Source: a virus (lineage: Duplodnaviria > Heunggongvirae > Uroviricota > Caudoviricetes). From it: a stretch of 22,203 nt of DNA. Numbering within the stretch: the first letter of the stretch is position 1; each line of letters opens with the position of its first letter. Below are positions 5,049 to 22,203 of the stretch, one piece after another. Location of the stretch: the IMG/VR virus record IMGVR_UViG_3300020050_013219; one strand, written 5' to 3'. The translations under genes were made by a program, and so were the position numbers. The notes under the pieces are model-generated. The model saw only the letters and a program-made list of their open reading frames with translations. It had not been told where the DNA came from and did not search any database.

Positions 5049-5081
5049 ATATAACAATAAACCATTTCCACATATAACAAA

Positions 5082-5617: not shown

Positions 5618-5804
5618 TTCAAAATTATTACTGAAAGAATTACATGCTATGTATTCAACAATACCTGACAGATATGATTATGAAAAAAACACTTCTGAAA
5701 TAGAAATATTAGAAAGTCAATTAAAAACAGCTTATGAGAATATTGACAAACTGAAAGACATTCTAATACAACTCATTAATTATTTAGATGAAAACAACAA
5801 TTAG
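5604..5804 (+). CDS. Small coiled-coil hypothetical protein
   Basis: 66-aa ORF overlapping both neighbours; the only called gene ending in TAG. Confidence 0.7.
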   Translation: MKTNDSKLLLKELHAMYSTIPDRYDYEKNTSEIEILESQLKTAYENIDKLKDILIQLINYLDENNN

Positions 5805-6036
5805 ATTTATTATTGAATTAGAAATGGAAGTAGAAATTGAAACTACTTTAAAATCAGGATATTACGAATTTGATGATTATGAGGAAGAAGAACATATCAA
5901 AGATGAACTTGATAGGATTCAAGAAGAAATTATTGACAATATAGATATTCCTGAAAATGAACAGTGTCAATATGTTAAACAGTCATTAAACTTTACAACT
6001 TTACAAATATGGCAAGCACAGCAACAATCAGAATAA
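5788..6036 (+). CDS. Highly acidic hypothetical protein
   Basis: 82 aa with about 22 D/E versus 6 K/R (hand count). Confidence 0.7.
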   Translation: MKTTIRFIIELEMEVEIETTLKSGYYEFDDYEEEEHIKDELDRIQEEIIDNIDIPENEQCQYVKQSLNFTTLQIWQAQQQSE

Positions 6037-6365
6037 TTCAAAATAATCAACTTTATGTAACTTTTCATGTTCAATGTGATGGTTTATATTGGGTTTTAGG
6101 CAAAGAAATAGCTGAAAAGTTAATCGAAATACAAAATAATCAAGATATTGAAAGAGTAAGAGAAGTAGTTAAAATATTAACTTTACATTTTCTACAAAAA
6201 GACACAATTGATATTGTACTAAATGGAGTTTATAATTCAGGAGACGATGTTTATGATATTGTACTAAATGATTGTGAAGTTTATAATTACACACTTAGTA
6301 TAAAATACAATAATAAATTTATGAAACTAAAAGAATTTCACAAATATGTTACAAGCAATACTTGA
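6009..6365 (+). CDS. Hypothetical phage protein resembling the MGTR...HxDGYP phage family
   Basis: MASTATIRI...FHVQCDGLYWVLGKEI N-terminus; degenerate match only. Confidence 0.65.
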   Translation: MASTATIRIIQNNQLYVTFHVQCDGLYWVLGKEIAEKLIEIQNNQDIERVREVVKILTLHFLQKDTIDIVLNGVYNSGDDVYDIVLNDCEVYNYTLSIKYNNKFMKLKEFHKYVTSNT

Positions 6366-6573
6366 TAAGTACATCAATTCAGAGGTGTCCAATAGCCTCA
6401 AAATTCACACCAATTCTGAAATGAGTAAAGCTATCATTGAGACATTTAAGTTGATTATAGAGGACATAGATATGCTTATAACCAATTCTGATGATGACAT
6501 TTGCAGAAATAAATATCCTGCTTTATTTGTAAGAGATTTAATTGAACAATATTACAACGAACAATGCAAATAA
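6346..6573 (+). CDS. Hypothetical phage protein
   Basis: 75-aa ORF overlapping the upstream gene. Confidence 0.65.
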   Translation: MLQAILDKYINSEVSNSLKIHTNSEMSKAIIETFKLIIEDIDMLITNSDDDICRNKYPALFVRDLIEQYYNEQCK

Positions 6574-6601
6574 AAACAAAATCAGAATTATTAAATTCAT
6601 T

Positions 6602-7372
6602 ATGAGTAAAATTCAAGAAATAGAAAAAGCTTTAGAACAAGCTAAAAAAGAAGAGCAATTAAAATATAGACTATCTGAACTTGAGCAATTAAATAAAGAT
6701 TTTCTTGGTAAATGTTTTGGAACTCATACTTTTGATAGAAATCACGCAGCAGCTCACATGAGTGCTGTTTATTATGAGAGATTTTACATAGAAGATAATG
6801 AAGTTTATGTAACAGAACATAAAATTAGTTTAACTCACATGGATGCTCATTATAAAAAATCTATGAAACAGATTAATTATGATAGAAATATTCATAATAG
6901 AGTTTTAAGTGGTAATCGGTATAATGCTCAATATAATCTTCAGCCAGGTTATTCAAACTTCACAAAAGAAATTTCATTTATCAAATTTAAAGAACTTTGG
7001 GAATGTGGAGAAGAAGCTAATATTATCATTAAAAATGCTTTTAGAGGTAAATTTCCTGAATTAGAAATGGAACGGATTAGTCAAGGAGACCATGATGCTG
7101 AAAGAGAAATTGATAACTGTATATCTGAAATGGGAATTGAAATCCTTGATTTCAAAAATTACCCAATAGTTCATAGAGTTATTGAATTTAGAAGGTTACC
7201 ATTGTTTGATAGAAGAAGGTATTTGCCAAAACTTTATGCTTCACCTATATTGAAGTGGTTAATAAAAGAACTTAAAAAAGATGCTGCTTCTCCTTTTACT
7301 TCTTACAGAAAAAGAGATTCTATTTTAGAAGATATTCAAATTCTACAAAACTTTATAAATAATAGTTTATGA
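6602..7372 (+). CDS. Hypothetical phage protein (257 aa from ATG 6602)
   Basis: Long ORF with phage-typical codon usage. ATG 6602 is preferred over the TTG at 6542, which overlaps the upstream gene. Confidence 0.8.
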   Translation: MSKIQEIEKALEQAKKEEQLKYRLSELEQLNKDFLGKCFGTHTFDRNHAAAHMSAVYYERFYIEDNEVYVTEHKISLTHMDAHYKKSMKQINYDRNIHNRVLSGNRYNAQYNLQPGYSNFTKEISFIKFKELWECGEEANIIIKNAFRGKFPELEMERISQGDHDAEREIDNCISEMGIEILDFKNYPIVHRVIEFRRLPLFDRRRYLPKLYASPILKWLIKELKKDAASPFTSYRKRDSILEDIQILQNFINNSL

Positions 7373-7632
7373 ACTTAACACAACAAATCCAAACATTCAA
7401 TACCTTTACATCAAAAGGTAAAAGAGCTGAAACAAAAGGAAGAGTAGTTTTTACTCTTCCTAAATTAAAGAAAGAAGAACATGATGAATTTTATAAAGCA
7501 ATTTATCAGCCAATTTCTTCTGCTGAATTTAATCCAGAAACAAAAACTTATACTTATGTTATAAACAGAAAATCTGGAATTGTTGAAATTAATCTAATTG
7601 AGAAAAGAAAATATGAACGAAAAATTAAATAA
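7369..7632 (+). CDS. Basic hypothetical protein
   Basis: 87-aa ORF with ATGA overlap upstream. Confidence 0.7.
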   Translation: MNLTQQIQTFNTFTSKGKRAETKGRVVFTLPKLKKEEHDEFYKAIYQPISSAEFNPETKTYTYVINRKSGIVEINLIEKRKYERKIK

Positions 7633-8047
7633 TCAATTTGTACTTTATGAACTTTCTTTGCAACTCAAAGAATTAGGTTTTGATGAACCTTGTTTGGGTT
7701 TATGGAGATTAATAGATTCTGAACCTATATTTAATATTACTTCTGATTATAGATACTCTACTTCTCAATCAAAAACAAGTCAGATACATGGTAAATCTGC
7801 AATTTTAGCTCCACTTTGGCAACAAGCTTTTGATTGGTTTGAAGAAAAACATGATTTATTTTGCTCTGTTGTACCTTTTGTTGCAGATTATTTAACAGGA
7901 GAAATAGAATTTAAACTTACAATTAGAGATTTATCATGCTCTGGACGTATAGTATATGAAGAATCATTTAGTGAAAATGAGGATAAAAATTTAATAATTA
8001 TACGAAATTTAATACAAATATGCAAGAAAGAAGATTTAAGCTTATAA
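7613..8047 (+). CDS. Conserved Bacteroidota-phage hypothetical protein
   Basis: FVLYELSLQLKELGFDEPC...APLWQQAFDWFEEKH pattern. ATG 7613 is preferred over TTG 7598. Confidence 0.8.
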   Translation: MNEKLNNQFVLYELSLQLKELGFDEPCLGLWRLIDSEPIFNITSDYRYSTSQSKTSQIHGKSAILAPLWQQAFDWFEEKHDLFCSVVPFVADYLTGEIEFKLTIRDLSCSGRIVYEESFSENEDKNLIIIRNLIQICKKEDLSL

Positions 8048-8427
8048 AATTATTTCCTCTTAGCCCTTCATTGGGCTTTGAGGTTTTATTTGAAACTGAA
8101 AAAGATTTTAACGATGGTATAAATGATGTAGGTGCAATATCTACATTAATGATTTCAGATTGTACCAAATTTCCTCAATTTTGGGAAGAAATCTTTGAAA
8201 CAGTAGAAACTCATAGATTTTACATTGATGAGCCTTGTAAAATTTGGAGAAGATATTGGTATGATATTCCAGGAACTTATGAAGATGCTGTGGCTTATAT
8301 GAAAAAAGAAGTTATTAATATGGATTTAGATGACCCTTATTTTGATGAATCTGAACCTATTGATGATACGGAAGAATATACAGGTGAACCAAGAGAATTA
8401 TTTAACGGTAAAGGAGAACAATTATGA
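8020..8427 (+). CDS. Hypothetical phage protein with acidic C-terminal half
   Basis: 135-aa ORF overlapping both neighbours. Confidence 0.75.
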   Translation: MQERRFKLIKLFPLSPSLGFEVLFETEKDFNDGINDVGAISTLMISDCTKFPQFWEEIFETVETHRFYIDEPCKIWRRYWYDIPGTYEDAVAYMKKEVINMDLDDPYFDESEPIDDTEEYTGEPRELFNGKGEQL

Positions 8428-8675
8428 AACAAGAAATATTTGAAAGAGCAAAACTTGAAATTTCTTGTGATGTAGCAGATGATATACTTTCTTTGTTTTT
8501 TACAGAAGAAGAACTTTATGTAGAAAGTGAAGGAGGTTTTTCATTTACAGAAGAAGCACAAGATAAATTTAATTTGATTCAAGAATGGATTGAAAAATCT
8601 ATGATTGACTTTGCGACAGAACTTATTTATAATGAAATAAGTTTAAAAGATTTAAAACAACTAACAAAAATATGA
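8424..8675 (+). CDS. Acidic hypothetical protein
   Basis: 83 aa with about 20 D/E; FTEEAQDKFN motif; ATGA overlaps at both ends. Confidence 0.75.
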   Translation: MKQEIFERAKLEISCDVADDILSLFFTEEELYVESEGGFSFTEEAQDKFNLIQEWIEKSMIDFATELIYNEISLKDLKQLTKI

Positions 8676-8947
8676 CACAAGAACAATTTAATGAATTATT
8701 GCCAATTAGAGATATTAATGGTCAATTAGGTTATCAATTGGTAATCAATAGATTAGATTTTGGCTTTATGGTTGAATACGGTTGTAAGAAACTGGCTATT
8801 GAAACCAAAGAAAAATTACAAATTTTAATGGAATTATATCTAAATTCTCCAAAAGAATTGTGGAATCTTTGGTATGAAGAAACTGAAAAACAAAGAGAAG
8901 TTATGGTTCAACAGGGTACACCTTTGGTTACTGAAACAGCTAATTAA
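8672..8947 (+). CDS. Hypothetical phage protein
   Basis: 91-aa ORF with ATGA overlap upstream. Confidence 0.72.
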   Translation: MTQEQFNELLPIRDINGQLGYQLVINRLDFGFMVEYGCKKLAIETKEKLQILMELYLNSPKELWNLWYEETEKQREVMVQQGTPLVTETAN

Positions 8948-8966
8948 TTCTCATAATTAAAAAATC

Positions 8967-8994
8967 GTTATAGAAGTAGAATTACAACTATAAC
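8967..8994. promoter_or_regulatory. Imperfect inverted repeat just upstream of the RepL-like gene
   Basis: GTTATAG-AA-GTA-GAAT-TAC-AA-CTATAAC: 7-bp plus 3-bp stems with a 2x2 internal loop, ending 10 nt before ATG 9005. Confidence 0.45.
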
Positions 8995-9004
8995 TAAATA
9001 ATAA

Positions 9005-9505
9005 ATGAAAACATGGGATTATGAGAAAAACATAAAGTTGAAAAATCACGAAGCTCCTGCAAAAATTAATATTGAGACAGGAGAAGTAACTATTTTAGGA
9101 GAAAGCAATACTATTGAAATATCTTACAATAATTATATTATGATAGATACAGCAACTTTAAAGACATTAGTAGATGAAAATCTATTAACAAGAGTTGAAA
9201 AAGGTTACATTGTAGAATTTGCAACTATGTTGAGAACTCAATATAATGCTATTTTTAATAACAATGTACCTCATACTATTGATAGTCTTTCAGAATATTT
9301 TGAAATGAATTATAATAGAATGAGTTCAACTTTAAAAACACTTACTAAAAAGGGGATTTTGGCTAAATTAGACACTGGGGATAGAAAAATGTATATTTTA
9401 AATCCTTATTTGGCAAGGAAAAGAAAATATATTGATTCTGAAACAGCTTTGATTTTTAAAAAATTTACTCACAAAAAAGTGAGTAAAACAGGTAAAATTG
9501 AGTGA
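9005..9505 (+). CDS. RepL-like winged-helix DNA-binding (replication/maintenance) protein
   Basis: INIETGEV N-terminus; HTH segment TIDSLSEYFEMNYNRMSSTLKTLTKKGIL followed by wing MYILNPYLARK, typical of RepL-like proteins. Confidence 0.7.
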   Translation: MKTWDYEKNIKLKNHEAPAKINIETGEVTILGESNTIEISYNNYIMIDTATLKTLVDENLLTRVEKGYIVEFATMLRTQYNAIFNNNVPHTIDSLSEYFEMNYNRMSSTLKTLTKKGILAKLDTGDRKMYILNPYLARKRKYIDSETALIFKKFTHKKVSKTGKIE

Positions 9506-9530
9506 TTTTACTCACAAAAATGTGAGTTGA
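9464..9530. repeat. Two direct copies of a palindromic operator-like site (TTTACTCAC-N6-GTGAGT)
   Basis: TTTACTCACAAAAAAGTGAGTAAA (9464-9487, perfect 9-bp arms) and TTTACTCACAAAAATGTGAGTTGA (9507-9530). The 21-nt core has 1 mismatch and the copies are 43 bp apart. Confidence 0.85.
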
Positions 9531-9617
9531 CCAAAGTGCTTAAAACAACTGATAATCAGAGAGTTAAAGGTCGGTTTGGTGAAATCTCCCTTATTAGTTA
9601 GTATTCACTATACTAAA

Positions 9618-9800
9618 ATGAAAATATTTACAGACAATCAAGAAATTTTTCAAGAAATATTAGATTTTTATTATTTTATGGAAGAATATGAGTATGTTTT
9701 TCATGGACATAGACAATATGAATTATATGAGGAATTTAAACGAATAAAAGAATCTATTGATAAGATTCAAAGTATTATGGATGAAAATTATAGTATATAA
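9618..9800 (+). CDS. Small acidic/aromatic hypothetical protein (60 aa)
   Basis: ATG 9618 in A-rich context is preferred over TTG 9576; last gene before the terminator. Confidence 0.6.
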   Translation: MKIFTDNQEIFQEILDFYYFMEEYEYVFHGHRQYELYEEFKRIKESIDKIQSIMDENYSI

Positions 9801-9805
9801 CAACA

Positions 9806-9843
9806 AAAACCAGTATAGATTTCCTATACTGGTTTTCTTTTTT
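9806..9843. terminator. Bidirectional intrinsic terminator at the convergent strand switch
   Basis: Perfect 13-bp inverted repeat AAAACCAGTATAG-ATTTC-CTATACTGGTTTT, with T-runs downstream on both strands, lying between the two converging gene blocks. Confidence 0.88.
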
Positions 9844-9845
9844 AG

Positions 9846-9886
9846 TCCCTGCCTATTTTTTTAATTTCCCTGCTTACTTTTTAATT
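9846..9886. repeat. Imperfect tandem duplication (21 nt + 20 nt)
   Basis: TCCCTGCCTATTTTTTTAATT followed directly by TCCCTGCTTACTTTTTAATT. Confidence 0.65.
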
Positions 9887-9888
9887 TC

Positions 9889-12800
9889 TTACCTTGATAA
9901 TGGGTCAGTAAATATCTTCCCATCAGTTCCTGTCGTTACACCAATCAATTTTAATCCTGCAACTCCAACTTTAAGTTTCCCTTTATTATCGCCTTTAACA
10001 TAAGTAGCACTTGGATTACTTGTTAAAATTTCAAATAAAGCATCTATTTGGTCAAGTGTTCTCATTACAGCAAATGGATTTTTTGCAATTCTCATTACAT
10101 CTTGCATACCACTTGTTAATGGAACACTAAGTCCCATATCATCAGGTTTTTCGTTTAAAAAGAACTCTGTTGTAAATGGAGTATCAATATTTAATGGTTG
10201 AAAATAATTAAAATCTCGACTTATTTTTAAAGTTATTGCCGCAGCAGTTGAGAACATGTAGTCATCATCATCTGAACCTTTTCCAATAGCTAAGAATATT
10301 ACAGCAAATATACTTGTAAAAGTAATAAATGCCTGCTCTATTACAGCTTGTCTAATAGCAATAATTTGTTCATCTGTAAAATACTGTCTTACTCTATCTA
10401 TATTTTCAGGAGTTATCCATAAAATATCTAATGGTGTTACTTTCTTATCACCAATACTTTGCCACATCCATTTTGCATCAGAAAGTATATAGTTGAAAAG
10501 AACTCTATATCTACCTTCATCTCTTTCATTTCTGTTAATCGAATAACCATCTTCTTTATATCTTGATAAGAATCCTGGAACTACCCATTTTTTATAGTTC
10601 TCTAACATTCTACCAAATACATTTTGTCTCATAATAGGACTGTTAATGCCACCTAATGACTTATAGTTTCCTTGCAATTTTCTATTCACTTCCTCTAACT
10701 TGCGTTTTTTATTTATAAGAACATCTTCCCGTACATTTCTCCAACCAACAATATCTCCACTACTCTCTATTGTTTGCCAATTAGCATTTAAGTCATTTGA
10801 AGCTGTTAAGGCTTTCCATAAAGTTGTAGAACTTCCATCAAGAAGTTTGACAGGAATGTTCTCTAATGTGGCAATCATAGCTGTAATTTGTGGCTGAACC
10901 TCTGCAAATTGAGAAGGTGCAAACCATGTAGTTGTACTAAAAGCTTTCCCTAAAAAACTTCTGTTTAACTGATTTCCGAATTTGTCAAAATATTCTCCTT
11001 GTAAAGGTTCTAACTCATCCATTAATTCAGCATAAACACTTGATGAATATTCAGTTTGTTTAACATGGTCAAGAAGCATATCCCACATAACTTTTCCACC
11101 TGAATATAATGCTTTCATATATTGTACCCAAGAATAAAGCTGTTCAGTCTTTGCACCTTCAAAATATCCTGTGGTATTCATTAAATTAGCAGTATTAGCC
11201 ATTCCTAAGTTAGTAAAGAAGTTTACTATTTTTACACCTCCTATTGTTCCAAATGCAGAGAATCCCATAAATTTGTTAAGAATTTTATCAATCCTTACAT
11301 TATGTTTACCAACTTTCCAACTAATAGGAGTATTTGTCTTACCAAAAAATACTCCATCAATCCACTTTTCTAAAAACCACTGCCGCCAGTCAGTTCCTGA
11401 TGGAATTGCTTCTGTAATTCCCATTGCAGCAAGGCTTTTATTAATCATAATTTCTCCAGTTCTATCTTGTTGCTTAGACTTTCCAAGTGTATATTGCATT
11501 TCCTTTGCAAGATGCAAGGTGTCTGCTTTTGCTCTGAAAGCTGCTGCTTGTTTTGCGAACATTAAAACTGTACCAAAATAATTATCAGATATTTCATTTG
11601 CGTTCATACTGTTACCTACATAGTAAATAGGTATTTTTTTACTATCATTTTCTGAAATTTCATCTGAAAAATGGTCAGTAAATTCTTGTTTTAATATTTT
11701 ACCAATAGCCATTTTGTCTTTTAGGTTTTTTTGCATGTATTCTTTTGGAACACTTGGTACTCTTGTCCCAGGTCTGCTATATTCAGGTAAATCCATTTGA
11801 GATTCATAATAAATTTTTGTTACAATATCAAATGCTTTTCTTTCAGAAGCTGATAATGCTGCAAGTTTATTAGAAGGATAACTACCTTTTTTAGGTATGA
11901 GAAGTTTACTACTGTATTTTGGAACAAGAATATCTCCTTTGAAACTATTTGCGATAAGATGATTAATATAAGATTCTTCACTATTTCTCCTAAAAGACTT
12001 ATTGTCGTATTTCATAGTTTTTATATCTAAATTACTTTCAACATAATGATAGAAAGATTGTAAACCTTGTTCACCATTAGCTTTTTTATAATCATCCAAC
12101 ATTCTCATAAAATGGTCTCCAATTGTATTGTTATAATAAGCAATATCTCCATTATCATCAATATAAGAATCTGTTTTATCTTTACTAAAAGCTAACTTTT
12201 CAGTGAAGTCTTTTTGTATTTTAGCTATTTTCACTCTTAATCCTTGTATTTCTGCTCTAATAGCATCGTTAGCATCATTTTGTGCTTTATGTTCAACTTC
12301 ATCAGCAACTGGTTTAGTAGAAATATTTTTATATAATTCGGTTATTTCCTTCCCGATTGCACCTATTTCATTAGCTGTTTTATGATAATCTTCATAATAT
12401 GCTTTCATATCTCTTTCAGAAATAAAATGTTTTTCGGTTCTTTCAATACCTTCTCTATCAGTATATTCGATAATTTCTGTAAAGTTTTTCATTACCTTTT
12501 CGTCATCATAAACTGCTCCTAAATCTTCTGAAAAATCAGTCCAAGCATCGGTCATTTCTTTACCCATAGGAGCAAATCTATTTTGCATTTTTTGAAAATT
12601 TTCTTCTACTCTATTAGCTAACAAAGTCATGGAAGCATCTCCCAAATCATGGATTGAACCTGTTACAGCTTTTAAAAACCCATTATCATTCCCATCCATC
12701 ATTTCATTTTGAATTTGTTGAACACTCGAAATAGTTTTCATTTCTTTCAAACCTTTTCTCAATTCTTCATTTTCTTCTTCAAGTGTTTCCTTTTTTTCAG

Positions 12801-15800
12801 GATTTTTTACTATTTTTTCTACATTTAGAGCTATTTTAGCAAGTATTTTATTATTTTTCTTCTCAATAACTTCGTTATTTGAAGCTATCTTAGCAGCAAT
12901 TTCCTTTTTATTATTAATTTGCAAGGTATGTGCAAAGTGAGTGCTATATTTCAAAGTAAGATTTATCTCTTCCATTGCATCAATCACTTCCTGAATATCT
13001 TGTGCAGCAGAATTATAATCAGACGATTGACCTATACTTTTTAAGTAAGCGTTTATATCCTCTGTTTGATTTCTACTTTGTTTCATAATTAATTTTAAAT
13101 TAGCAATTTCAGATTGATTAGTATGAATATCTAAATAAGTTCTAATATAAGCAGCCATTTCTGTATATTTTTTATGCTGTTCATCAGTCCATTCAGAAGT
13201 ATCTCCTTTGTAATCAGCAGCTATTTTCTTTGCAAGCCCTAAGAGATTGCTGTTAAGTACATTTGTATAAGCAGAGTTATCCGTAGAAATTTCTCCTTTT
13301 GAAATAAGATTATATTTTAAATTACTCACATACATAACAATAGAAGCTGCTTGTTTTATTGTCTTTAATAACTCGGTTTCAGTAGCATGTTCTTTGTTTA
13401 TATTTCTAATTTTAGAAGCATGAGTAACATTATCATTGTAAAGCGTTTTACCACTATTATTTCTACTAACATTAGAAAGTTCTTTTCCCATTTCCTCATA
13501 AGAAGTAACTATTTTACTAACCCAATCAAAAGTTGCAACTTCTACTTCTGTTGGATTTAATGGAATATAATTATCAGCTTCTTCCATTGCTAAATCCTCT
13601 ATTGGTTTATTTTCACTTAACTCACTTTCATGCTCATTAAAAGGTACATCGTCAATAGGTTTATTATTAGAAATTTCTTCATTTGGAGCAGTCCTAAACA
13701 CATTAAAATCAGCATCATAAGGAATTGTTTGCCCATCTTCTGTTGTTAAATCATTTTCATTTAAAGCAGTTACTCTTAATCTTACCTTGTCATTTACTAT
13801 TAAATCTCCAACTTGAACATTATCTTTGCTAAGTTTTCCTTGCATTTCTTGACCACCTTCAACTGATTTTTGATAATAAGTATTAAAATTATTACTGTTT
13901 ATTACTTCACTTCTAATTAATGAACGTGGATATTTTTTAGCAACTTCTTTTAAAGCAGATATTTTTGTGTTGATAAGAGCTTGTTCATTGTATTCTTTTC
14001 CTTTGTATCTACTCCTATATTCATCCCCATTATCTTCTACCCAATTTTCAGCTTGCTCACGAGTTTCAAAATTTTGTATATAATCTGAAATATTTCCTCC
14101 GACATCTGTATTATTTATAAATAGTCCGAAAGGTCTTTCATCATTATCACCTGTATCTCCTACATCTTCTAATATTTGATAAGATAATTCTTCAATATCA
14201 AATGAAGTTTTAAACTTTGCTACTTTATCTTTAATCTTTCCAATACTTTCTTTCAAATCTTTTTCAGTTATATTAGGTTGAATACCATTATTTCTTTGAG
14301 ATTTAACTAAAGTAAATCTTTTCCCTGCTTCAACACTTTTATCTTGATAAGCATCTATAAAATCTAAAGCTTTCTTTTCATCTAAATAGGTATTGATTAT
14401 TTTAGTTGAACCATCATCATTAATATCCCAATTATCATGTACTTCAAAAACTTTTACAGTACTTCCTTTTACAGCAATTTCAGGTTTCTTAATCTTACCA
14501 TAAGTATCATCTAAAACAGAATTAACAACTCCTACCAATCTTTTAATTTCATAAGGTACATCTTCATCTACCTCAAGCCTAAAATTGTTGCTTAAAACAA
14601 TACCAAGTTCATTATGATGGTCTGCAAGGTTATCTACAATTGAAGCTAAATTTGGCTGCACAGAATTGATATTAGCCAAAGAAGGATATTTTGTGTAACT
14701 TACCCCAAGTAATTCAGATTTTTTATCTTTATTTACTTTTTCTGCCGCATCCCAAACAGAACCACTATAAGCATCTCTATTAGTTGCCCATAAAATATCT
14801 TCAGGTTTTGGATAAATTACAAATTTAATTTTTCCACCGCCACCTTCAAGATGAGAAATATTTTTATCAATAGGTTTTGTAAAGGCTGAAATAGCAAAAT
14901 GTCCACCTGCTTTTTTATTATCTTCAATATGATGCAGTAAGTTTTGAAACATAAGCTTTACATCAAATTGAGAATAAGCTCCCACAACTGAATAAAAACC
15001 TTGACCTCTACTATAAATTTCTTCAGGATTGTATTTTATACTGTTTACTTTTTTCCATTCTTCGATAATTTCCTTTGATTGTTCAAATTCTTTGTTTTTT
15101 TCTATAAAAGCTTGAAGATTTTGAGGAGTTGTTTTCATATTTGTTCCTTCATTTATAGGAGCATATTTTATAGAATCTTTCCATATTTCTAAAGCTTCTT
15201 GTTTTGATATTTCATTAATATCTTCTTCCCCCATATATTGACTAAACCATTTATTATCTTTTTTAAATACTCTTACACTATCTCCATCTTCACCTTGATT
15301 GAAAACAAAATAATCAGGCATTTCATTAATATCTAAATTTTTGTTTGTTAAATCAACATCTTTAACACTATTAGCTAATTTACTAATATGATTACTTGCT
15401 TCTTGATAAGTTTTAAATGTTTGATTATCTGGGGTTGTATAAATCACTTCATTTTCTGGAAGTATAATCTTAGAATTGCTATAAGCTAAAATATTAGCAA
15501 TATCATTTAAAGTCATATTATCAGGTAATTTATCTACTTCAATTTCTTTTTGTCTAAGAAGATTTCTCATAAAAGTAGCCATTTCTTTAAGTAATCTTTT
15601 CAATAAAGAAATAAGTTTACCATCTTTTACAGCATCAAGTTTTTCAGCAGTCATTAAAGAAACAAGTTCTACAATAGCTTCTTCTTGTTGTTCTTCTAAA
15701 TCATATTTTGCTACTACTAAAGAATCCGTATATATATTATTATTTAATTTTTTTAAAAAAGCTCTTGCTTCCATACCAATTCCTGCTTCCTCTACTCTAT

Positions 15801-17892
15801 TTCTATTTTTATCATATAAAACATCTACCCATTTATCATTTACATAGCCTTTATCAATTCTATAAAAATTACTTTCTCTTATAGGATAATCTTTCTTAAT
15901 TCTATCAAGTACTTCTTTACCTTTTCCACTTTCGAGTTCTTTGAGAAGATTATTATATAATACAGAACGTTGTTCAATTAAAACACTTTCTTTCCCTTTA
16001 TCTGTATTATAAGTTTCTTCTTTAAGACTTACTTTGTTTTTAATAGCATTTATAATAGGATGCCCTAAAATTTCATGGATAGAAGTGTCCAATGTAGCAT
16101 AAGCCAAATTAATAGTAGCAATATTTCCTTCCAATTTTCCTTTAAAATTTTGACTTCTATCAGATATAAATTCAACTTCTATCCCAATTCTATTAGCTAA
16201 TCTTGCAGCTAAATCTCTTATTGTTTTTTCAGAAGCAATAAAATCTTGATTAGATTGACCTGAATTATTTTGATAATAAGTTTTTGGTTTATTATCTACA
16301 ATCTTTAATTTACCAACTTGGCTATCAGTACTTCCAATTTCGGATTTTACAATATTTGTAAGATTATTTAAAGCTCTTTCAGCCAAAGTTCCTTCAACTT
16401 TAATTCCAAGTTTACTTAGCATATCTTTAAACATTTGAATAAGTTTACCAATGAAAGAATCATCTTTAATAGCAGCTAATTCTTCAACAAAAGATTGTTT
16501 GGAAAGTGCCGCATAAAATTCATCAATAGAACTAAATTCATACCTTGTATTAGAAGGGTCTAAAATAGCCTTAGAATCAATCCAAACTTTTTCCATGTCT
16601 TTATATACCTTTGGAGAGTTCTTCTTCCAATAGGCTAATTTAAGGGCTGTGAGAGCATGTATGACTTCATGTGTAAAAACTGTTTCAGGATTGGTTGAAT
16701 TGACATTCAACCTTATAATTCCATTATCAAAATGACCTGCTTCTACAATGTTATCTACAATTTCTACTTTCATATTATCAATAGATTGATTACTAAGTCC
16801 GTAAAGCATTTTGAGTAATTTGTTTGCATGATTATTAGGGTTTTTATAATTTTTAACAAATTCAGAAAAATGTTCTGTATCTTTTTTAGAACCCAATATA
16901 TAAACTTGTTTTGAATCAGTAACTATATAACTTTTACCTTCACCTTCAAATTTATTTTCATAAACAATTCCTTCTGTTGAAGTTTTTATAGTTTTTCTTA
17001 AAATTTCATCCCATACTTCATTATGTTGAACATCTTCTGACCCATAAAGTTTACTAATATTTAATAAAACAGGTATAATTTTTAAAGTCTTATTTTTATC
17101 TTTATTTATCTCTTCATTCAAACTATCTATATATTTTTGTTTTCTTTCTTCTAATGTATTTATTACACTTTTAGGTAATTCTTCAAAAGATATTGACTTA
17201 TTGCTTGTATTAAATTCTCCATCAGAAGTAATTGAAGTTATACTTTCTATTAATTTTTTATTTTCATTATAATAATAATTTTTATTTCCGAATCTAACAG
17301 AATCTCCTTTAGAAGCTAAATCTTCATATTTAATATTATCAGGATTAATAGGTTGCACATTTTGAACAAGACTGTTATCAAATATACTTGCTTGTTCTAA
17401 AGTTCCAAAATGTAAACCTGCACTGTATAAATTACCTAAAGCATTTTGCTCCATCGGTACTTGAAAAGTATCAAAAGATTCAGTAGTCCCATGGTATAAA
17501 ATATCTTTTACTTTACTATTGGGAAATATAGTGCTTAAATATTCTGAATACTGTTTTCTTGTTCCTATTTTTTCTAATTCAGAATTTTGTTCAAATACAA
17601 AATCAACTTCTTCTGAAACAAGTTTTTCTCCAATATTCTCAAATATTTCTTTAAAAGAATAAATTCCCTGCTTATATTTTTTATTTCCAATGGTTATTTC
17701 TGTTTGATTTAAAGTTTTTTCATTAGATTTTAAAATTCCCTCCACTAAATCATTAGCGGAAGGAAAATCATAAGTATTATTTTTATCTTGCCAAACAGCA
17801 ATTTTAGCAGCTACAATGATAGGTTTTAATCCTAATTCATCACTCAATTCTTTAACTTGAATACTGTTATAATCTATACATCTTTTGTTCAT
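9889..17892 (-). CDS. Giant polyvalent, probably virion-packaged/ejected protein (2667 aa) of crAss-like type
   Basis: Uninterrupted 8-kb ORF. It carries an ART-like domain, HEVIH and HEILGH zincin motifs, a long helical C-terminal half and one hydrophobic TM segment. The N-terminal C...ELSDELGL.P..VAAKIAVWQ.KN motif is one I associate with crAss-like giant proteins. Confidence 0.85.
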   Translation of the reverse strand: MNKRCIDYNSIQVKELSDELGLKPIIVAAKIAVWQDKNNTYDFPSANDLVEGILKSNEKTLNQTEITIGNKKYKQGIYSFKEIFENIGEKLVSEEVDFVFEQNSELEKIGTRKQYSEYLSTIFPNSKVKDILYHGTTESFDTFQVPMEQNALGNLYSAGLHFGTLEQASIFDNSLVQNVQPINPDNIKYEDLASKGDSVRFGNKNYYYNENKKLIESITSITSDGEFNTSNKSISFEELPKSVINTLEERKQKYIDSLNEEINKDKNKTLKIIPVLLNISKLYGSEDVQHNEVWDEILRKTIKTSTEGIVYENKFEGEGKSYIVTDSKQVYILGSKKDTEHFSEFVKNYKNPNNHANKLLKMLYGLSNQSIDNMKVEIVDNIVEAGHFDNGIIRLNVNSTNPETVFTHEVIHALTALKLAYWKKNSPKVYKDMEKVWIDSKAILDPSNTRYEFSSIDEFYAALSKQSFVEELAAIKDDSFIGKLIQMFKDMLSKLGIKVEGTLAERALNNLTNIVKSEIGSTDSQVGKLKIVDNKPKTYYQNNSGQSNQDFIASEKTIRDLAARLANRIGIEVEFISDRSQNFKGKLEGNIATINLAYATLDTSIHEILGHPIINAIKNKVSLKEETYNTDKGKESVLIEQRSVLYNNLLKELESGKGKEVLDRIKKDYPIRESNFYRIDKGYVNDKWVDVLYDKNRNRVEEAGIGMEARAFLKKLNNNIYTDSLVVAKYDLEEQQEEAIVELVSLMTAEKLDAVKDGKLISLLKRLLKEMATFMRNLLRQKEIEVDKLPDNMTLNDIANILAYSNSKIILPENEVIYTTPDNQTFKTYQEASNHISKLANSVKDVDLTNKNLDINEMPDYFVFNQGEDGDSVRVFKKDNKWFSQYMGEEDINEISKQEALEIWKDSIKYAPINEGTNMKTTPQNLQAFIEKNKEFEQSKEIIEEWKKVNSIKYNPEEIYSRGQGFYSVVGAYSQFDVKLMFQNLLHHIEDNKKAGGHFAISAFTKPIDKNISHLEGGGGKIKFVIYPKPEDILWATNRDAYSGSVWDAAEKVNKDKKSELLGVSYTKYPSLANINSVQPNLASIVDNLADHHNELGIVLSNNFRLEVDEDVPYEIKRLVGVVNSVLDDTYGKIKKPEIAVKGSTVKVFEVHDNWDINDDGSTKIINTYLDEKKALDFIDAYQDKSVEAGKRFTLVKSQRNNGIQPNITEKDLKESIGKIKDKVAKFKTSFDIEELSYQILEDVGDTGDNDERPFGLFINNTDVGGNISDYIQNFETREQAENWVEDNGDEYRSRYKGKEYNEQALINTKISALKEVAKKYPRSLIRSEVINSNNFNTYYQKSVEGGQEMQGKLSKDNVQVGDLIVNDKVRLRVTALNENDLTTEDGQTIPYDADFNVFRTAPNEEISNNKPIDDVPFNEHESELSENKPIEDLAMEEADNYIPLNPTEVEVATFDWVSKIVTSYEEMGKELSNVSRNNSGKTLYNDNVTHASKIRNINKEHATETELLKTIKQAASIVMYVSNLKYNLISKGEISTDNSAYTNVLNSNLLGLAKKIAADYKGDTSEWTDEQHKKYTEMAAYIRTYLDIHTNQSEIANLKLIMKQSRNQTEDINAYLKSIGQSSDYNSAAQDIQEVIDAMEEINLTLKYSTHFAHTLQINNKKEIAAKIASNNEVIEKKNNKILAKIALNVEKIVKNPEKKETLEEENEELRKGLKEMKTISSVQQIQNEMMDGNDNGFLKAVTGSIHDLGDASMTLLANRVEENFQKMQNRFAPMGKEMTDAWTDFSEDLGAVYDDEKVMKNFTEIIEYTDREGIERTEKHFISERDMKAYYEDYHKTANEIGAIGKEITELYKNISTKPVADEVEHKAQNDANDAIRAEIQGLRVKIAKIQKDFTEKLAFSKDKTDSYIDDNGDIAYYNNTIGDHFMRMLDDYKKANGEQGLQSFYHYVESNLDIKTMKYDNKSFRRNSEESYINHLIANSFKGDILVPKYSSKLLIPKKGSYPSNKLAALSASERKAFDIVTKIYYESQMDLPEYSRPGTRVPSVPKEYMQKNLKDKMAIGKILKQEFTDHFSDEISENDSKKIPIYYVGNSMNANEISDNYFGTVLMFAKQAAAFRAKADTLHLAKEMQYTLGKSKQQDRTGEIMINKSLAAMGITEAIPSGTDWRQWFLEKWIDGVFFGKTNTPISWKVGKHNVRIDKILNKFMGFSAFGTIGGVKIVNFFTNLGMANTANLMNTTGYFEGAKTEQLYSWVQYMKALYSGGKVMWDMLLDHVKQTEYSSSVYAELMDELEPLQGEYFDKFGNQLNRSFLGKAFSTTTWFAPSQFAEVQPQITAMIATLENIPVKLLDGSSTTLWKALTASNDLNANWQTIESSGDIVGWRNVREDVLINKKRKLEEVNRKLQGNYKSLGGINSPIMRQNVFGRMLENYKKWVVPGFLSRYKEDGYSINRNERDEGRYRVLFNYILSDAKWMWQSIGDKKVTPLDILWITPENIDRVRQYFTDEQIIAIRQAVIEQAFITFTSIFAVIFLAIGKGSDDDDYMFSTAAAITLKISRDFNYFQPLNIDTPFTTEFFLNEKPDDMGLSVPLTSGMQDVMRIAKNPFAVMRTLDQIDALFEILTSNPSATYVKGDNKGKLKVGVAGLKLIGVTTGTDGKIFTDPLSR
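10282..10333 (-). other. Predicted transmembrane helix near the C-terminus of the 2667-aa protein
   Basis: AFITFTSIFAVIFLAIG followed by an acidic DDDD stretch. Confidence 0.65.
13868..16281 (-). repeat. 14-nt exact direct repeat (ACTTATTATCAAAA on the coding strand) bounding a 2400-bp in-frame segment
   Basis: ttttgataataagt at 13868-13881 and 16268-16281; both copies encode T-Y-Y-Q-(N/K), at residues 538 and 1338. Confidence 0.6.
15470..16250 (-). other. Zincin-like metallopeptidase domain (HExxxH variant) within the 2667-aa protein
   Basis: KGKLEGNIATINLAYATLDTSIHEILGH (HEILGH at 16060-16077) plus downstream QEEAIVEL. Confidence 0.6.
16420..16790 (-). other. Zincin-like metallopeptidase domain (HExxH) within the 2667-aa protein
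   Basis: AGHFDNGIIRLN...FTHEVIHALT (HEVIH at 16657-16671) plus SSIDEFYA as candidate third ligand. Confidence 0.7.
16855..17600 (-). other. ADP-ribosyltransferase-like (ART-PolyVal-type) domain within the 2667-aa protein
   Basis: LYHGT...F..F (17485-17496), GLHFGTLEQA (17401-17412), IIPVLLNI, EGIVYENKFEGEGKSYIV..SKQVYIL. Confidence 0.65.
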
Positions 17893-17902
17893 TACAAATT
17901 AG

Positions 17903-18256
17903 TTATTTCAAGTTTTTCAACTTATATATTGTGCTGTAAATCAATTCAATAGCAGATTGCACGATTTGTTGTAAAAATCCATCTTTTAAACTTTTTTCAT
18001 ATTCTTCAAAAGCAAGAACTTTTCTTTTCAGGTAAACAATCATGTCTTGACCTTCTGGTTCTTTTTTAATAGGAATATCCTTGATTATTCCATATTTACC
18101 AATATAAGACTCACAAAATTTATCACGCCAATCAACAATCTCTTCATATAAAGTATTTAAAGCCATGTGTTGTGAATAACTTGTTGTCTGTAAATGAGCT
18201 ATGTGAGCAGTTGTTTCAATTTCAAATAAAGCTCCTATAAATTCTTGTACTGTCAT
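17903..18256 (-). CDS. Ferritin/Dps-like four-helix protein (DUF5856-like)
   Basis: AHIAHLQTTSYSQHMALNTLYEE...DKFCESYIGKYG...STIYKLKNL, matching the phage ferritin-like family. Confidence 0.75.
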   Translation of the reverse strand: MTVQEFIGALFEIETTAHIAHLQTTSYSQHMALNTLYEEIVDWRDKFCESYIGKYGIIKDIPIKKEPEGQDMIVYLKRKVLAFEEYEKSLKDGFLQQIVQSAIELIYSTIYKLKNLK

Positions 18257-18278
18257 GATTTAATTTAGTTTTGAGAGA

Positions 18279-21200
18279 TTACAAATTGCAATCTCTCATT
18301 TTTTGTTGTTCTTCATCGCTTAAAGAGTTCCATTCATCAATAGACATTCCTAATTTATCTAAATCTGATTTACTTATTTCAGAAGTTTTATCATTTATAA
18401 AATTTTCTATATTAGATTTACCTTTTCTTAAAGATTCTAAAGTATCTTCATCGTGATATTTATAAGAAAGTTCTTCTTCAATTTCTTTTAAATTATAAAC
18501 TTCTATGTAATCTGATAAACCTTTTGTAAAAATATTGGAAAATTCAGTTTTATATAAATCTTCTAATCCTATTTCTCCAAAAGAATCTAATAATAAATAA
18601 TCTTTACTTCTAATTTTATCTAAATCATCAATAGTTAAATATCTCTCATTTTCATCCTCATCCATTATTTTATATTTTTTAGAAGAAATAGCTCTTTTCA
18701 ACAATTTTTTATTTAAAATCTCTTGTTTACTGGATAAATCAATATAATTAAAGTCTTCATCAGTTACATTATCAATATCATCAAACAATTCAGCAACAGA
18801 TTTTTGATTAGATTTAATTTCTTGAGCTATTTGTTCTGCTGATTTTTCTTTTTCTTTAAACAGATTTCTAATAATATTAGATTTATTTTCAACATGTTTA
18901 ATATCAATATCATTTATAATATCTTTGATTTCAGAACTATAATTCTTTAATAAATAATCAGTCAAAGTTTTATAATACACATGTGATTGTATAGTAAATT
19001 CACTAAATCCTAATACGAAATTAATAACTTCTTCTTGATAAGGATAATCTTCAGGAGAATCCCATTCTCCTTGTCCTCCATAATCATCTTTCAAATAAGT
19101 TATAGCATTTATTAGAGTCATATTTTCAATTATTAAATCATCTTCTTCCGCAACATCATTTACTTTATTTAATAAACTATCCACCTTACCATAAATCAAT
19201 TTTTTTGTATTAATAGGCATCTCATTAAATAAATGATGTATATATTCATGTTCTAATATTTTAGAATTTAATAACTCTTTAGGAAGATGTAATGTTTTAT
19301 CTGAATTTTTAAAATATGCTATGGCTTTTTTACGTACTGTTCTAATTTCTTCAGGTGTTTCTATTATAACTCCTAATTCTTTAGCAAGTTCTATTGCTGA
19401 TTTTTCAACAGGTTTTTGTTCAACACTTGGTTGAGAAGAAATATTGTCTTGTGTCTTTTGATAAACATCTCTAATAGCTTGTATTGATTGTTCAGTCATT
19501 TTACCATTTTCTTGTCTGCTACCAATTCCTGCAAAATCTTTATGTAATATTGGAATTTCAGATTTTACGAAAGTTGAACCATTCCATTTGTACCATTGAT
19601 TTGTTTTAGTATCAAACACATTTACTTCTTTACCATTAGCAATAGCCATTTCAACTGCATAACCTGTGCCACCATCAACAGTAGCTCTTTTTGCTTTTAC
19701 AACATATCCTTGTGAATTTTTTTCATTTGGATAAACTATCGGAGCAATAGCAACTACTTGTGTACTATTTTTAATTTGAAACCAATTCCTACCTAATAAA
19801 TTAGCATATTTATCTACAAAAGGTCTTCCAAGTTGTTGAGCAGCTAATTTAGCATGTTCAATTCCTTCTTCAAGTTGTTCTTTTGTAAGTTCAACATTAC
19901 CTTTAGGGGTTTTTTGATTAGCCCAATAATGATTGTGATTCAAAACTCCAAATTCTCTACCTATTGTATCAAACATACTATCTGCACCAATAGCTCCACC
20001 TGAATGATTTGTTATTTCAGACACTGATTTTGGTAAGACCATTTTGTTAGCTTCAACAGATTGGTTTGGTTCAACAGGCATATCTTTTGTTAAAGGCATT
20101 ACTCTTCTTCTTGTAATAGAAATTCTATAACTTCCTTGTGGATAAGTAATATTTTCTAATTCAAAATGAATTTTCGGTAAAAATCCTTTTGTATTATCAG
20201 CATAGGTACTATGACTAATTTTTCTATTAATTCCTTGATAACCAAACAAATACCCTTGACCACTCGCTACTTTTATAGATTTTTTATTAGCATCATTTCC
20301 AATAATTATATTACCTTCTCCGCCAATATTTCCTACAATTACGGGATATTTTTCAGCAGATTTACTTTCTTCTAAATCTGAATGATTACCTATAAATGAT
20401 TCGTTATTATATACATTTATAATAAATCCATCATAATTAGAAGCATCAATAGGACTAAATTTATTGAATAATTCTCTTATTCTTGGAGTAGTTTGTCCTA
20501 AAGGTTCTCCATTAATAGAAACATTATAATAACCATAAGAAGTTTGTCTTCCTGCAAGGTTTTCTCCTATTTCAACAGGTTTTCTTCCTTCATTATTACT
20601 TTTATAATCCCATCTTAGACCGTCTAATCCTATCATAATAGGAGCATTTTTTCCTTTATTTGTTTTCTTTCCTTGTTTTTCTAAAAAAGGTTTTAAGAAA
20701 TCAAATATTTCTAATTGTTCTTCTTTTGATAAGATATTATTAGATATATATACACCTTCTGTTATTTTTGTTCCTAATGGGGAAGTTTGTTGATTTTTCA
20801 AACTTTCCCAATTATTAATCAAATAATCCAAAGCATTTGCATGAGAAGGTTGATTTAATTCTTTGTAATAAACAATAGCTTTTCCTTTTAATATTCCTTT
20901 GTCAAGTTGTTCTCTAATCCAATTTTTTCTTTCTAATAAATCAAATAGATAATTGTTTGCAAACTTTTCTTGTTCATTTGTATTATTACTTCCACTAATT
21001 TTTTTAATTTTCTGATAAAAATCATTAAACTCTTGGCTATCAAATGTTTTTAAAGGATGAGTATAATCATATTTATCAGTTAAAATCCAATCAATATATT
21101 TTTCAACAGATTCTTGAGTAGAGTTTGTTTTAACTAATTTATCTTTTTCTACTAAATCATCATAACTACTAAAAGGATTGCCAAAATGTTTATTAGAATT

Positions 21201-22203
21201 ATCAACTCTTAAACTAAAAATACCTCCAACAGACTTAGCATAATCAATTCCTGCTTGTTGGTAAACTGATTTTATTAATACATTTCCACTTTCTGTTTTC
21301 TTTGGTAAACTCGCATATATCTTTTCAGCTAATGTTTGATTTTTAATTTTACCCAAAGCTTCTTTAATTAAATCAGCCTCAAGTTCTGCTTCTTTCTTTC
21401 CAGTATAATACATACCATTTCCAATCTTTTCTCCAGGTTTAATATCATCATTTCTATAACCAACAACATCTTTTCCACCTTTTGTAACAATACTTTCATA
21501 AATTGGAGTAAATTCTTCATCATTTAACATTGATTTAATAGAATTTTCATTAAGTACAAGTCTAACTTTTCCATAACTTATCCCAAAAGCAGGAATTACT
21601 TTTTTCTTTTCATCAAAATTGAAACCTGCATTTTTCAAAGCTTCTCTTGCATTTCCAATTGTATCTCCTTGTTCATTAGCTTCCATGAAATATTCTTTCT
21701 TATATAAACTTGGCAGGAAAGATTTATTTGATTCATCTGCCACAAAATTTCTAATAAAATCAATCATTAATTGGTCAGCAGATTTACCTGTAATTTCCTC
21801 AAAATTCTTTTCATTCATTAATCTGTCAATAAGTCCATTTGTTTGTGCAAACAAAGGTGTGGAAATCAATGAATTAACACTTCCAGATTTGAATTGAAGT
21901 CCTTCTTTAACTACTGATTGAATGTACATAAGTTTTGCTAATGTTCCCATAAGTTTGTTTGGGTCAATTCCAACAAGTGCTTCATCAACAGTTTTACCAC
22001 TTTCCATTGCCTTTTTAATTTCTTCCAAAGCATGTGGTCTTCTGTTAAATCTCTCATAATCATTTTGCATTTTTTCATCTGCAAATCTCACAGCTTTTAA
22101 CCAAGTATTCATTGAAACTGAATCAATTGTTTTTCCTTCAAATTCTCCCTGCTTCATTATTTTTTTTACAGCAGTTAATCCTTTCATTAACGAATTATCA
22201 ACT
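18279..22203 (-). CDS. 5'-truncated giant multidomain polyprotein (more than 1302 aa); possibly the C-terminal part of a crAss-like virion RNA polymerase
   Basis: The frame stays open upstream of ATG 22187 to the window edge (V-D-N-S-L-M), so the start lies outside the window. It contains DUF4326-like, AlkB-like, SLOG and HEYIH domains. The RNAP identity is a guess from context and the MYIQSVVKEGLQFKSGSVNSLI segment; no RNAP catalytic motif is in the window. Confidence 0.8.
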   Translation of the reverse strand, partial: VDNSLMKGLTAVKKIMKQGEFEGKTIDSVSMNTWLKAVRFADEKMQNDYERFNRRPHALEEIKKAMESGKTVDEALVGIDPNKLMGTLAKLMYIQSVVKEGLQFKSGSVNSLISTPLFAQTNGLIDRLMNEKNFEEITGKSADQLMIDFIRNFVADESNKSFLPSLYKKEYFMEANEQGDTIGNAREALKNAGFNFDEKKKVIPAFGISYGKVRLVLNENSIKSMLNDEEFTPIYESIVTKGGKDVVGYRNDDIKPGEKIGNGMYYTGKKEAELEADLIKEALGKIKNQTLAEKIYASLPKKTESGNVLIKSVYQQAGIDYAKSVGGIFSLRVDNSNKHFGNPFSSYDDLVEKDKLVKTNSTQESVEKYIDWILTDKYDYTHPLKTFDSQEFNDFYQKIKKISGSNNTNEQEKFANNYLFDLLERKNWIREQLDKGILKGKAIVYYKELNQPSHANALDYLINNWESLKNQQTSPLGTKITEGVYISNNILSKEEQLEIFDFLKPFLEKQGKKTNKGKNAPIMIGLDGLRWDYKSNNEGRKPVEIGENLAGRQTSYGYYNVSINGEPLGQTTPRIRELFNKFSPIDASNYDGFIINVYNNESFIGNHSDLEESKSAEKYPVIVGNIGGEGNIIIGNDANKKSIKVASGQGYLFGYQGINRKISHSTYADNTKGFLPKIHFELENITYPQGSYRISITRRRVMPLTKDMPVEPNQSVEANKMVLPKSVSEITNHSGGAIGADSMFDTIGREFGVLNHNHYWANQKTPKGNVELTKEQLEEGIEHAKLAAQQLGRPFVDKYANLLGRNWFQIKNSTQVVAIAPIVYPNEKNSQGYVVKAKRATVDGGTGYAVEMAIANGKEVNVFDTKTNQWYKWNGSTFVKSEIPILHKDFAGIGSRQENGKMTEQSIQAIRDVYQKTQDNISSQPSVEQKPVEKSAIELAKELGVIIETPEEIRTVRKKAIAYFKNSDKTLHLPKELLNSKILEHEYIHHLFNEMPINTKKLIYGKVDSLLNKVNDVAEEDDLIIENMTLINAITYLKDDYGGQGEWDSPEDYPYQEEVINFVLGFSEFTIQSHVYYKTLTDYLLKNYSSEIKDIINDIDIKHVENKSNIIRNLFKEKEKSAEQIAQEIKSNQKSVAELFDDIDNVTDEDFNYIDLSSKQEILNKKLLKRAISSKKYKIMDEDENERYLTIDDLDKIRSKDYLLLDSFGEIGLEDLYKTEFSNIFTKGLSDYIEVYNLKEIEEELSYKYHDEDTLESLRKGKSNIENFINDKTSEISKSDLDKLGMSIDEWNSLSDEEQQKMRDCNL
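18930..19340 (-). other. Zincin-like metallopeptidase motif domain in the partial polyprotein
   Basis: AIAYFKNSDKTLHL...ILEHEYIHH (HEYIH at 19236-19250) and downstream YQEEVI. Confidence 0.55.
19455..20020 (-). other. SLOG-superfamily (DprA/YpsA/molybdenum-carrier-like) nucleotide-binding domain
   Basis: NHSGGAIGAD, LLGRNWFQI...VVAIA, GGTGYAVEMA...KEVNVFD...WYKW, FAGIGSR. Confidence 0.75.
20100..20770 (-). other. AlkB-like 2-oxoglutarate/Fe(II) dioxygenase domain
   Basis: EGVYISNNILSKEEQ, FIINVY...IGNHSD (H at 20382-20384, D at 20376-20378), distal His in ISHST (20211-20213), and RISITRR matching the AlkB RxNxTxR-type motif. Confidence 0.8.
20810..21260 (-). other. DUF4326-like domain
   Basis: HFGNPF...ESVEKYIDW...LKGKAIVYYKELNQPSHANALDYLIN, a variant of the WGNPF...L.GK.L.C.C...CHGDVL pattern. 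Confidence 0.6.

Follow-up and report, generated by a model that had tools for sequence, protein, structure and literature searches.

Proteins of phages and conjugative elements in which several enzymes are joined in one very large polypeptide have been described as polyvalent proteins, which are encoded with virion genes, predicted to be injected and to act early, and built of domains that are shuffled between relatives (Iyer, Burroughs, Anand, de Souza, Aravind 2017; PMC5512222). Viral fusions of DUF4326, SLOG, Macro and NADAR domains, the DUF4326-SLOG fusion included, have been described, with ADP-ribose derivatives as their predicted substrates (Iyer et al. 2021, PMC7824862; 2022, PMC9503650). 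In the Flexiviridae the polymerase polyprotein of some viruses contains an AlkB domain, which occurs sporadically among relatives (PMC2553587; PMC544882). In crAss-like phages a DFDxD motif is reported to mark the large polymerase that all of them package in the virion (bioRxiv 10.1101/2020.03.07.982082). Here we analyse IMG/VR virus record IMGVR_UViG_3300020050_013219, a 22,203-nucleotide stretch of caudovirus DNA (the window, by which the whole stretch is meant), in which a DUF4326-like domain, an AlkB domain and a SLOG domain follow one another in a giant protein. The array is the polyvalent-protein strategy on what its sequence indicates to be a crAss-type virion polymerase, using the known association of DUF4326 with SLOG.

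In keeping with polyvalent proteins, several unrelated effector domains lie in one polypeptide, are shuffled among relatives and stand beside a second giant gene, whose product has 2667 residues. The carrier differs, being predicted to be a crAss-type two-barrel virion RNA polymerase, and the text of PMC5512222 makes no mention of AlkB, SLOG or NADAR. The viral exemplars of the DUF4326 and SLOG fusions are typically stand-alone (PMC7824862; PMC9503650), whereas here the pair lies inside a predicted polymerase of ~5400 residues with AlkB between its members, and the DUF4326-like domain is without every cysteine of the CxC..CH motif. The Flexiviridae share both the embedding of AlkB in a polymerase protein and its sporadic occurrence, but their carriers are RNA-dependent replicases of eukaryotic RNA viruses rather than the putative DNA-dependent RNA polymerase of a DNA phage with other neighbour domains, and their AlkB has demonstrated 1mA and 3mC demethylation, whereas activity here is predicted from sequence (PMC2553587; PMC544882). 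The polymerase proteins of the crAss-like group (Cellulophaga phage phi14:2 gp66, bioRxiv 10.1101/2020.03.07.982082; crAss001 gp47/gp49/gp50, PMC10172136) are likewise described as having the DFDxD motif, as virion-packaged and as thought to be ejected. The protein studied here would differ from these in its ~5400 residues in one chain with a C-terminal enzyme array, and it is likened to them through matches of a close relative's polymerase region to crAss genes, not to gp66 itself. The window contributes a comparison of two near-identical phages, only one of which has AlkB, a whole clade of AlkB domains inside giant phage proteins and a cysteine-less DUF4326-like clade.

The interpretation we favour, and consider moderately probable, is that the DUF4326-like, AlkB and SLOG domains form an array that is ejected while tethered to the virion polymerase and that is predicted to remove base adducts and ADP-ribose-type nucleotides. 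The parts of the open frame are as follows.

18279..22202, minus strand: C-terminal 1307 residues, stop codon included, of a giant protein assigned by identity to a relative as a putative crAss-type virion RNA polymerase; one stop-free frame, 5'-open at the window edge
21306..22202, minus strand: conserved region before the cassettes, residues 1-299, 89% identical to the relative
20790..21305, minus strand: cysteine-less DUF4326-like domain, residues 300-471 (HFGNPF 21171-21188, YYKEL 20856-20870, SHANALDYLI 20817-20846)
20067..20789, minus strand: AlkB-type Fe(II)/2-oxoglutarate dioxygenase cassette, residues 472-712 (H607-x-D609 within 20376-20387, H664 within 20205-20219, R693..R699 within 20103-20129)
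19455..20066, minus strand: SLOG domain of the YpsA/cpYpsA-like kind, residues 713-916 (HSGGAIGAD 19980-20006, RNWFQIK 19770-19790, GGTGYAVE 19650-19673, AGIGSR 19515-19532)
18873..19454, minus strand: HEYIH-motif module, a possible zincin by its motif only (HEYIH at 19236-19250)
18282..18872, minus strand: C-terminal tail, residues 1111-1307, ending ...RDCNL (Cys1305 at 18288-18290), 29% identical to the relative's tail

An earlier note on this DNA had placed three consecutive domains on a giant phage protein at 19455-21260, which corresponds to residues 315-916 of the 1307-residue frame. The three domains are there, as are the two linkers that it quoted (NQQTSPLG, residues 470-477; SSQPSVEQKP, residues 922-931), which join the modules and are short and rich in Q, S, T and P. 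Residues 1-299 matched no Pfam family at its cut-off, and the region was present in 31 of ~170 related proteins in a local jackhmmer search.

The carrier protein and its proposed delivery

The closest relative of the window frame, IMGVR_UViG_3300033068_001745, encodes a single open reading frame of 5321 residues, the C-terminal part of which is 77-89% identical to the window frame. GEDFDIDK lies at residue 3576 of this protein and is its sole motif of the kind, and the genes that the surrounding region matches in 99 phage records bear the annotation 'putative RNA polymerase', every record being from a crAss-like or Bacteroides phage; a phmmer search against solved structures gave no match. Among DUF4326-like carriers of at least 2000 residues a DFDxD motif was found in 53 of 71, standing upstream of the domain in 43 of those 53. 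The window frame is thus, as far as its sequence tells, the C-terminal quarter of a ~5400-residue crAss-type virion RNA polymerase, with the polymerase part read in one relative. A tether to the virion polymerase had been supposed in the earlier note, which proposed looking upstream for the DFDID motif, and the relative, used as proxy for the window, bears this out.

The same kind of association is found outside the crAss-like phages. A SLOG module with 41.5% identity occupies residues 983-1159 of the 3819-residue N4-type virion polymerase of the cultured Klebsiella phage Pylas (NC_049444.1, positions 9097-20556), a polymerase that is unrelated to the crAss-type carrier yet bears the same module, which makes the SLOG-bearing virion polymerase of Pylas a tractable experimental system. 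A SLOG-bearing giant gene is also present in crAssphage cr113_1 (NC_055896.1, positions 1-12795), in which 73 in-frame stops under table 11 suggest stop-codon reassignment.

The giant proteins of the window are nearly free of cysteine. The single cysteine of the 1307-residue frame, C1305, is third from the end and that of the 2667-residue protein is residue 5, giving two cysteines in 3974 residues, at facing ends, against 51 in 2844 (1.8%) for the other 18 open reading frames of the window. In 144 DUF4326-like representatives (P0027-P0170) overall cysteine content is 0.15%, and in 96 of them one of the final five residues, usually the penultimate, is a cysteine; the giant protein of cr113_1 has an end (...FICNL) resembling that of the window. 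In Pylas the 3819-residue virion polymerase is cysteine-free, while a separate canonical DUF4326 gene (L027, positions 934-1170) keeps CFCKPKACH. Avoidance of cysteine in cargo proteins offers a reason for the existence of a cysteine-less DUF4326-like clade.

Mass spectrometry of crAss001 virions has revealed polymerase-associated proteins, which are believed to be ejected (PMC10172136). Since crAss polymerase proteins are virion cargo and the tail here is nearly cysteine-free, delivery of the array by the virion, as the earlier note had it, is plausible. It has to be weighed against the possibility that the tail is never delivered, being removed by proteolysis in maturation or acting late in the cell, for example in packaging or as a scaffold, with no role in early infection. 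The HExxH motif after the domains and the exposed linkers would fit removal of the tail, but cysteine is avoided through the whole tail to a single residue three from the end and the terminal cysteine is kept in those 96 of 144 relatives, which argues for an importance of the genuine C-terminus in the mature protein. An undelivered tail appears very improbable. Two aromatic-Gln motifs, VYQ at residues 313-315 and 913-915, bracket the noted region and were considered as cleavage sites; this is not favoured, because one lies in a conserved, well-folded part of the DUF4326-like domain and the other in such a part of the SLOG domain, and because conservation does not extend to the Gln of the second motif.

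The domains of the array

The Pfam family 2OG-FeII_Oxy_2 (PF13532) matches residues 483-699 of the AlkB domain over profile positions 1-194 of 194. The match is a marginal pass when the domain is searched alone (31.3 bits against a cut-off of 31.2) and is below the cut-off in the full protein (27.9 bits), while the relatives located in giant proteins reach 31.5-74.5 bits and those of its own clade 33.9-74.5 bits. Only four relatives of similar length were found in a collection of 5.8 billion proteins, all four carrying PF13532, and the profile of the clade matches the rice 2OG-Fe oxygenase 5xeg at E 2.2e-5. Aligned with E. coli AlkB, the reference being taken from NC_000913.3, residues N596, Y598, H607, D609, E612, H664, R693, T697 and R699 correspond to N120, Y122, H131, D133, E136, H187, R204, T208 and R210, and all nine positions are invariant among the aligned sequences.

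In the E. coli numbering N120, Y122, R204 and R210 are the residues that bind 2-oxoglutarate. Their counterparts N596, Y598, R693 and R699, together with the iron triad H607, D609 and H664, are invariant in the AlkB alignment of seven sequences. Because all Fe(II) and 2-oxoglutarate ligands of the E. coli enzyme (b2212, DNA oxidative demethylase) are shared, the active site is complete by sequence and the domain looks catalytically intact. Identity to E. coli AlkB is only 23% and the sequences show no relation in the N-terminal region of the substrate 'lid', so that substrate preference is not transferable from E. coli. AlkB enzymes prefer single-stranded substrates. A tblastn search of the AlkB domain against 50,697 GenBank phage records gave no match at E 0.01, and a search of one literature collection for AlkB together with crAss-like phages returned only an unrelated review.

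The SLOG domain is matched over residues 729-876 by PHROG 768, 'DprA-like', at E 2.6e-6, while Pfam SLOG families appeared only as weak single matches among homologues (DNA_processg_A, 0.062; YAcAr, 0.038). It has 488 stand-alone relatives of ~205 residues with the common motifs HSGGAxGxD, RNWxQVK, GGTGYAV and AGIGxR, and in 27 SLOG sequences the glycine-rich HSGGAxGxD loop and the second loop GGTGYAV are near-invariant. An AlphaFold model built on the relatives' alignment (predicted local distance difference test, pLDDT, 94) was compared with 48,161 chains by VIA-align, the top match being 3imk_A, well above the remainder (Z 12.0, root-mean-square deviation 3.4, 138 aligned). Ranks 2-10 are all SLOG proteins, namely 1rcu (TM1055), 2nx2 (YpsA), 3maj, 3uqz and 4ljk (DprA), 2iz5 (Chlamydomonas Mo-cofactor carrier), 8zva (ShosA), 1weh (TT1887) and 5wq3 (type-II LOG). 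In the model residues 713-916 clearly adopt a SLOG fold of the YpsA-like kind. Foldseek found nothing significant for the same model in the PDB. Single-sequence PDB searches were uninformative, an acetyltransferase match of the SLOG domain among them being spurious.

The DUF4326-like domain, residues ~300-471, is a real and conserved domain, modelled by AlphaFold at pLDDT 90 and having 637 representatives at E <=0.001, mostly within proteins of 2000-6800 residues. Its relation to DUF4326 is remote. Pfam PF14216 matched neither the window domain nor the whole contig of the closest relative even at E 10, was matched weakly by three of 19 homologues (best E 0.006), and is carried by the nearest ESM Atlas clusters. 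Foldseek against BFVD gave weak top matches, most of them named DUF4326 (best probability 0.97, E 0.14), and hhalign against three canonical phage DUF4326 proteins gave an alignment colinear over 67-81 columns across both motifs (P 0.002) at a low probability of 13.5%. The canonical pattern ...WGNPF...GK.LgCFCKPKxCHGD.L reads ...HFGNPF...GKxIvYYKELxxPSHAxALD in this clade. In the window GNPF is retained (HFGNPF) and the three CxC..CH cysteines are replaced (GKAIVYYKELNQPSH), with YYK..SH in their place; CxC..CH was found in 0 of 166 relatives and the aromatic-aromatic...[ST]HA version in 160 of the 166. The domain is not a member by Pfam's definition.

A rhodanese-phosphatase fold has been proposed for DUF4326 (PMC7824862; PMC9503650). 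Neither this nor any other solved fold could be assigned to the DUF4326-like domain, since VIA-align found no solved structure at Z >=5, and Foldseek found nothing significant in the PDB. A clade of DUF4326 that has lost its cysteines bears on the role of those residues in the canonical family, where they are better explained as a structural or metal site than as essential to catalysis. Of the 'three intact-looking enzymes' of the earlier note, then, AlkB keeps a complete active site and SLOG its predicted fold, but the DUF4326-like domain is without the family cysteines and fails PF14216. The domain-wise Foldseek comparison it proposed yielded, for the DUF4326-like and SLOG models, the weak BFVD matches just given for the former and nothing significant in the PDB for either.

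The module that follows SLOG, with HEYIH at residues 985-989, is possibly a zincin, a reading that comes from the motif. It had been listed as a zincin behind the three enzymes; it lies outside 19455-21260 and no Pfam, NCBIfam or PHROGs family matched it, so the claim does not extend beyond the motif. An ESM Atlas lead, LPD23, is present in 18% of one cluster. A search of the HExxH-plus-tail region against GenBank phage records gave no match.

Exchange of cassettes and the proposed role

The DUF4326-like and SLOG domains abut in the closest relative, NNWESVINQ being followed directly by SVEANKMV, and exactly there the window has 241 extra in-frame codons (20067-20789) that encode AlkB. The first 29 bases past the right AlkB border are identical in both phages, and only AAY CAA is common to the two borders. 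A repeated letter-identical DNA joint was looked for at the AlkB borders and not found; direct repeats within the gene look like AT-rich chance matches. AlkB is a swappable in-frame cassette, and because direct adjacency of DUF4326-like and SLOG domains is common, its insertion in the window lineage is a simpler reading than deletion. After SLOG the two phages differ by a second cassette, the relative having an SF1 (RecD/Pif1-like) helicase (AAA_30, UvrD_C_2; ~residues 4716-5151) in the place of the window's HEYIH module, before the last ~190 residues become homologous again. The absence of the AlkB cassette from so close a relative had escaped the earlier note, as had the published accounts of the DUF4326-SLOG pairing (PMC9503650; PMC7824862). 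Two near-identical phages of which only one has AlkB provide a natural experiment on the benefit of the cassette.

In related phages these modules recur in different orders and groupings, with NADAR and SF1 helicase among their companions. SLOG adjoins the DUF4326-like domain in ~21 proteins, in either order, AlkB adjoins it in seven of ~166 representatives, and all three domains in a row occur among the representatives only in the window. Relatives of this AlkB (45-63% identity) were found at 16 IMG/VR loci, in all 16 of them within giant open frames, next to SLOG in five, the DUF4326-like domain in one, NADAR in two (L013 and L016) and SF1 helicase in two (L007 and L015). The NADAR that follows AlkB scores above the cut-off in L016 (6730-8961; 38.8 bits) and below it in L013 (6778-8085; 27 bits), where a cysteine-less DUF4326-like domain lies between AlkB and NADAR. 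The C-terminal extension of a further AlkB relative (P0026) is NADAR-like by eye and was not confirmed by Pfam.

The array is accordingly a swappable kit of enzymes with a predicted part in repair or counter-defence, since the close relative is without AlkB. This bears on another account, in which AlkB does housekeeping repair, clearing extracellular alkylation lesions from virion DNA at entry so that the polymerase is unblocked, with the flanking domains serving function or regulation of the polymerase. Such repair fits established AlkB chemistry and the precedent of AlkB in plant-virus replicases (PMC2553587; PMC544882), but the cassette is sporadic, being found in seven of ~166 related polymerase representatives, and is missing from a close relative, a pattern more in keeping with an accessory trait shaped by conflict than with a repair step that is essential. 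Housekeeping repair appears distinctly improbable.

The company that AlkB keeps bears in turn on a different account, in which the array is a kit for quenching signals rather than for repair, with the SLOG and DUF4326-like domains degrading or sequestering soluble ADP-ribose-derived signals or toxins (cyclic ADP-ribose variants, ADP-ribose phosphates) and AlkB an unrelated passenger. This is the published prediction for viral combinations of SLOG, DUF4326, Macro and NADAR (PMC9503650), and the window SLOG, being nearest the YpsA-like clade, may be counted in its favour. AlkB is however no chance neighbour, since at least 22 giant proteins have it beside such modules. The remaining partners that recur work on nucleic acids, NADAR as a DNA ADP-ribose glycohydrolase (PMC11543638) and SF1 as a helicase, and the whole array is, by prediction, polymerase-tethered. 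We regard signal quenching alone as unlikely.

In the ejected, polymerase-tethered array that we favour, the whole protein would travel in the virion and be ejected together with the DNA or before it, by analogy with other crAss polymerase cargo, so that its enzymes would arrive before phage gene expression. The tethered AlkB would then oxidatively remove methyl or alkyl adducts, of the 1-methyladenine or 3-methylcytosine type, from the template as it enters or from the earliest transcripts, while the SLOG and DUF4326-like pair would bind or break down ADP-ribose-type nucleotides or adducts, the array together keeping the template readable and blunting nucleotide-based host defences. We infer these steps from AlkB chemistry, from the published prediction for SLOG and DUF4326 and from the NADAR and SF1 helicase partners in relatives. 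AlkB domains of plant-virus replicase polyproteins repair methylated RNA (PMC2553587), and NADAR frees guanine in DNA of ADP-ribose, an activity that phages employ against DarTG1 (PMC11543638; PMC11825919). If the array is ejected with the polymerase, its enzymes would act in the first seconds of infection, before phage genes are read, and reversal of base adducts would be a first line of counter-defence for a group of phages that is very abundant.

Several points weigh against this interpretation. The window ends before the polymerase part of the gene, so that polymerase identity is taken from one relative, and the activities and virion presence of this phage's array are predicted from sequence and models. 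The LOG-type glutamate (GGTGYAVE) is present in the window SLOG and variable among relatives, and because it is not conserved there, a predicted role in binding or sensing is as likely as hydrolysis. The DUF4326-like domain may also bind rather than catalyse, given the loss of the family cysteines and the want of a solved-fold match. The tail could be cleaved off before packaging. We know of no defence system whose methylation of phage nucleic acid would be of the AlkB-reversible kind.

A fuller scenario, which is doubtful as a whole, would make the array a template-cleaning crew on the virion polymerase, in which AlkB strips methyl adducts, NADAR (in relatives) strips ADP-ribose adducts and the SLOG and DUF4326-like domains handle the released ADP-ribose products. 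The adducts would be placed on the DNA or the earliest transcripts by host defences or the environment, the cassettes would be exchanged to match the defences of each host, and the cysteine-less domains would be an adaptation to passage through the tail in a disulfide-chained cargo thread.

Neighbouring genes

A megablast search of the window against GenBank phages gave no match. Downstream of the polymerase frame lie two further genes on the same strand.

17903..18256, minus strand: gene of 117 residues between the two giant genes, matching phrog_858 'starvation-inducible transcriptional regulator' at E 2.8e-24
9889..17892, minus strand: next giant protein, 2667 residues, with its sole cysteine, residue 5, at 17878-17880

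An open reading frame of the same size stands directly after the giant one in the closest relative (L004), matching the position of the 117-residue gene. The neighbouring giant protein, described in the earlier note as bearing an ART domain, had no Pfam or PHROGs match to ART in general scans, no search aimed at ART having been made. The write/erase payload that the earlier note made of the two proteins is hypothetical, as are the biochemical activities ascribed to its domains. Elsewhere in the window two HNH/endonuclease VII-like genes (phrog_3322; 1233-1739 and 4330-4938) flank a ribonucleotide reductase gene (2609-4342).

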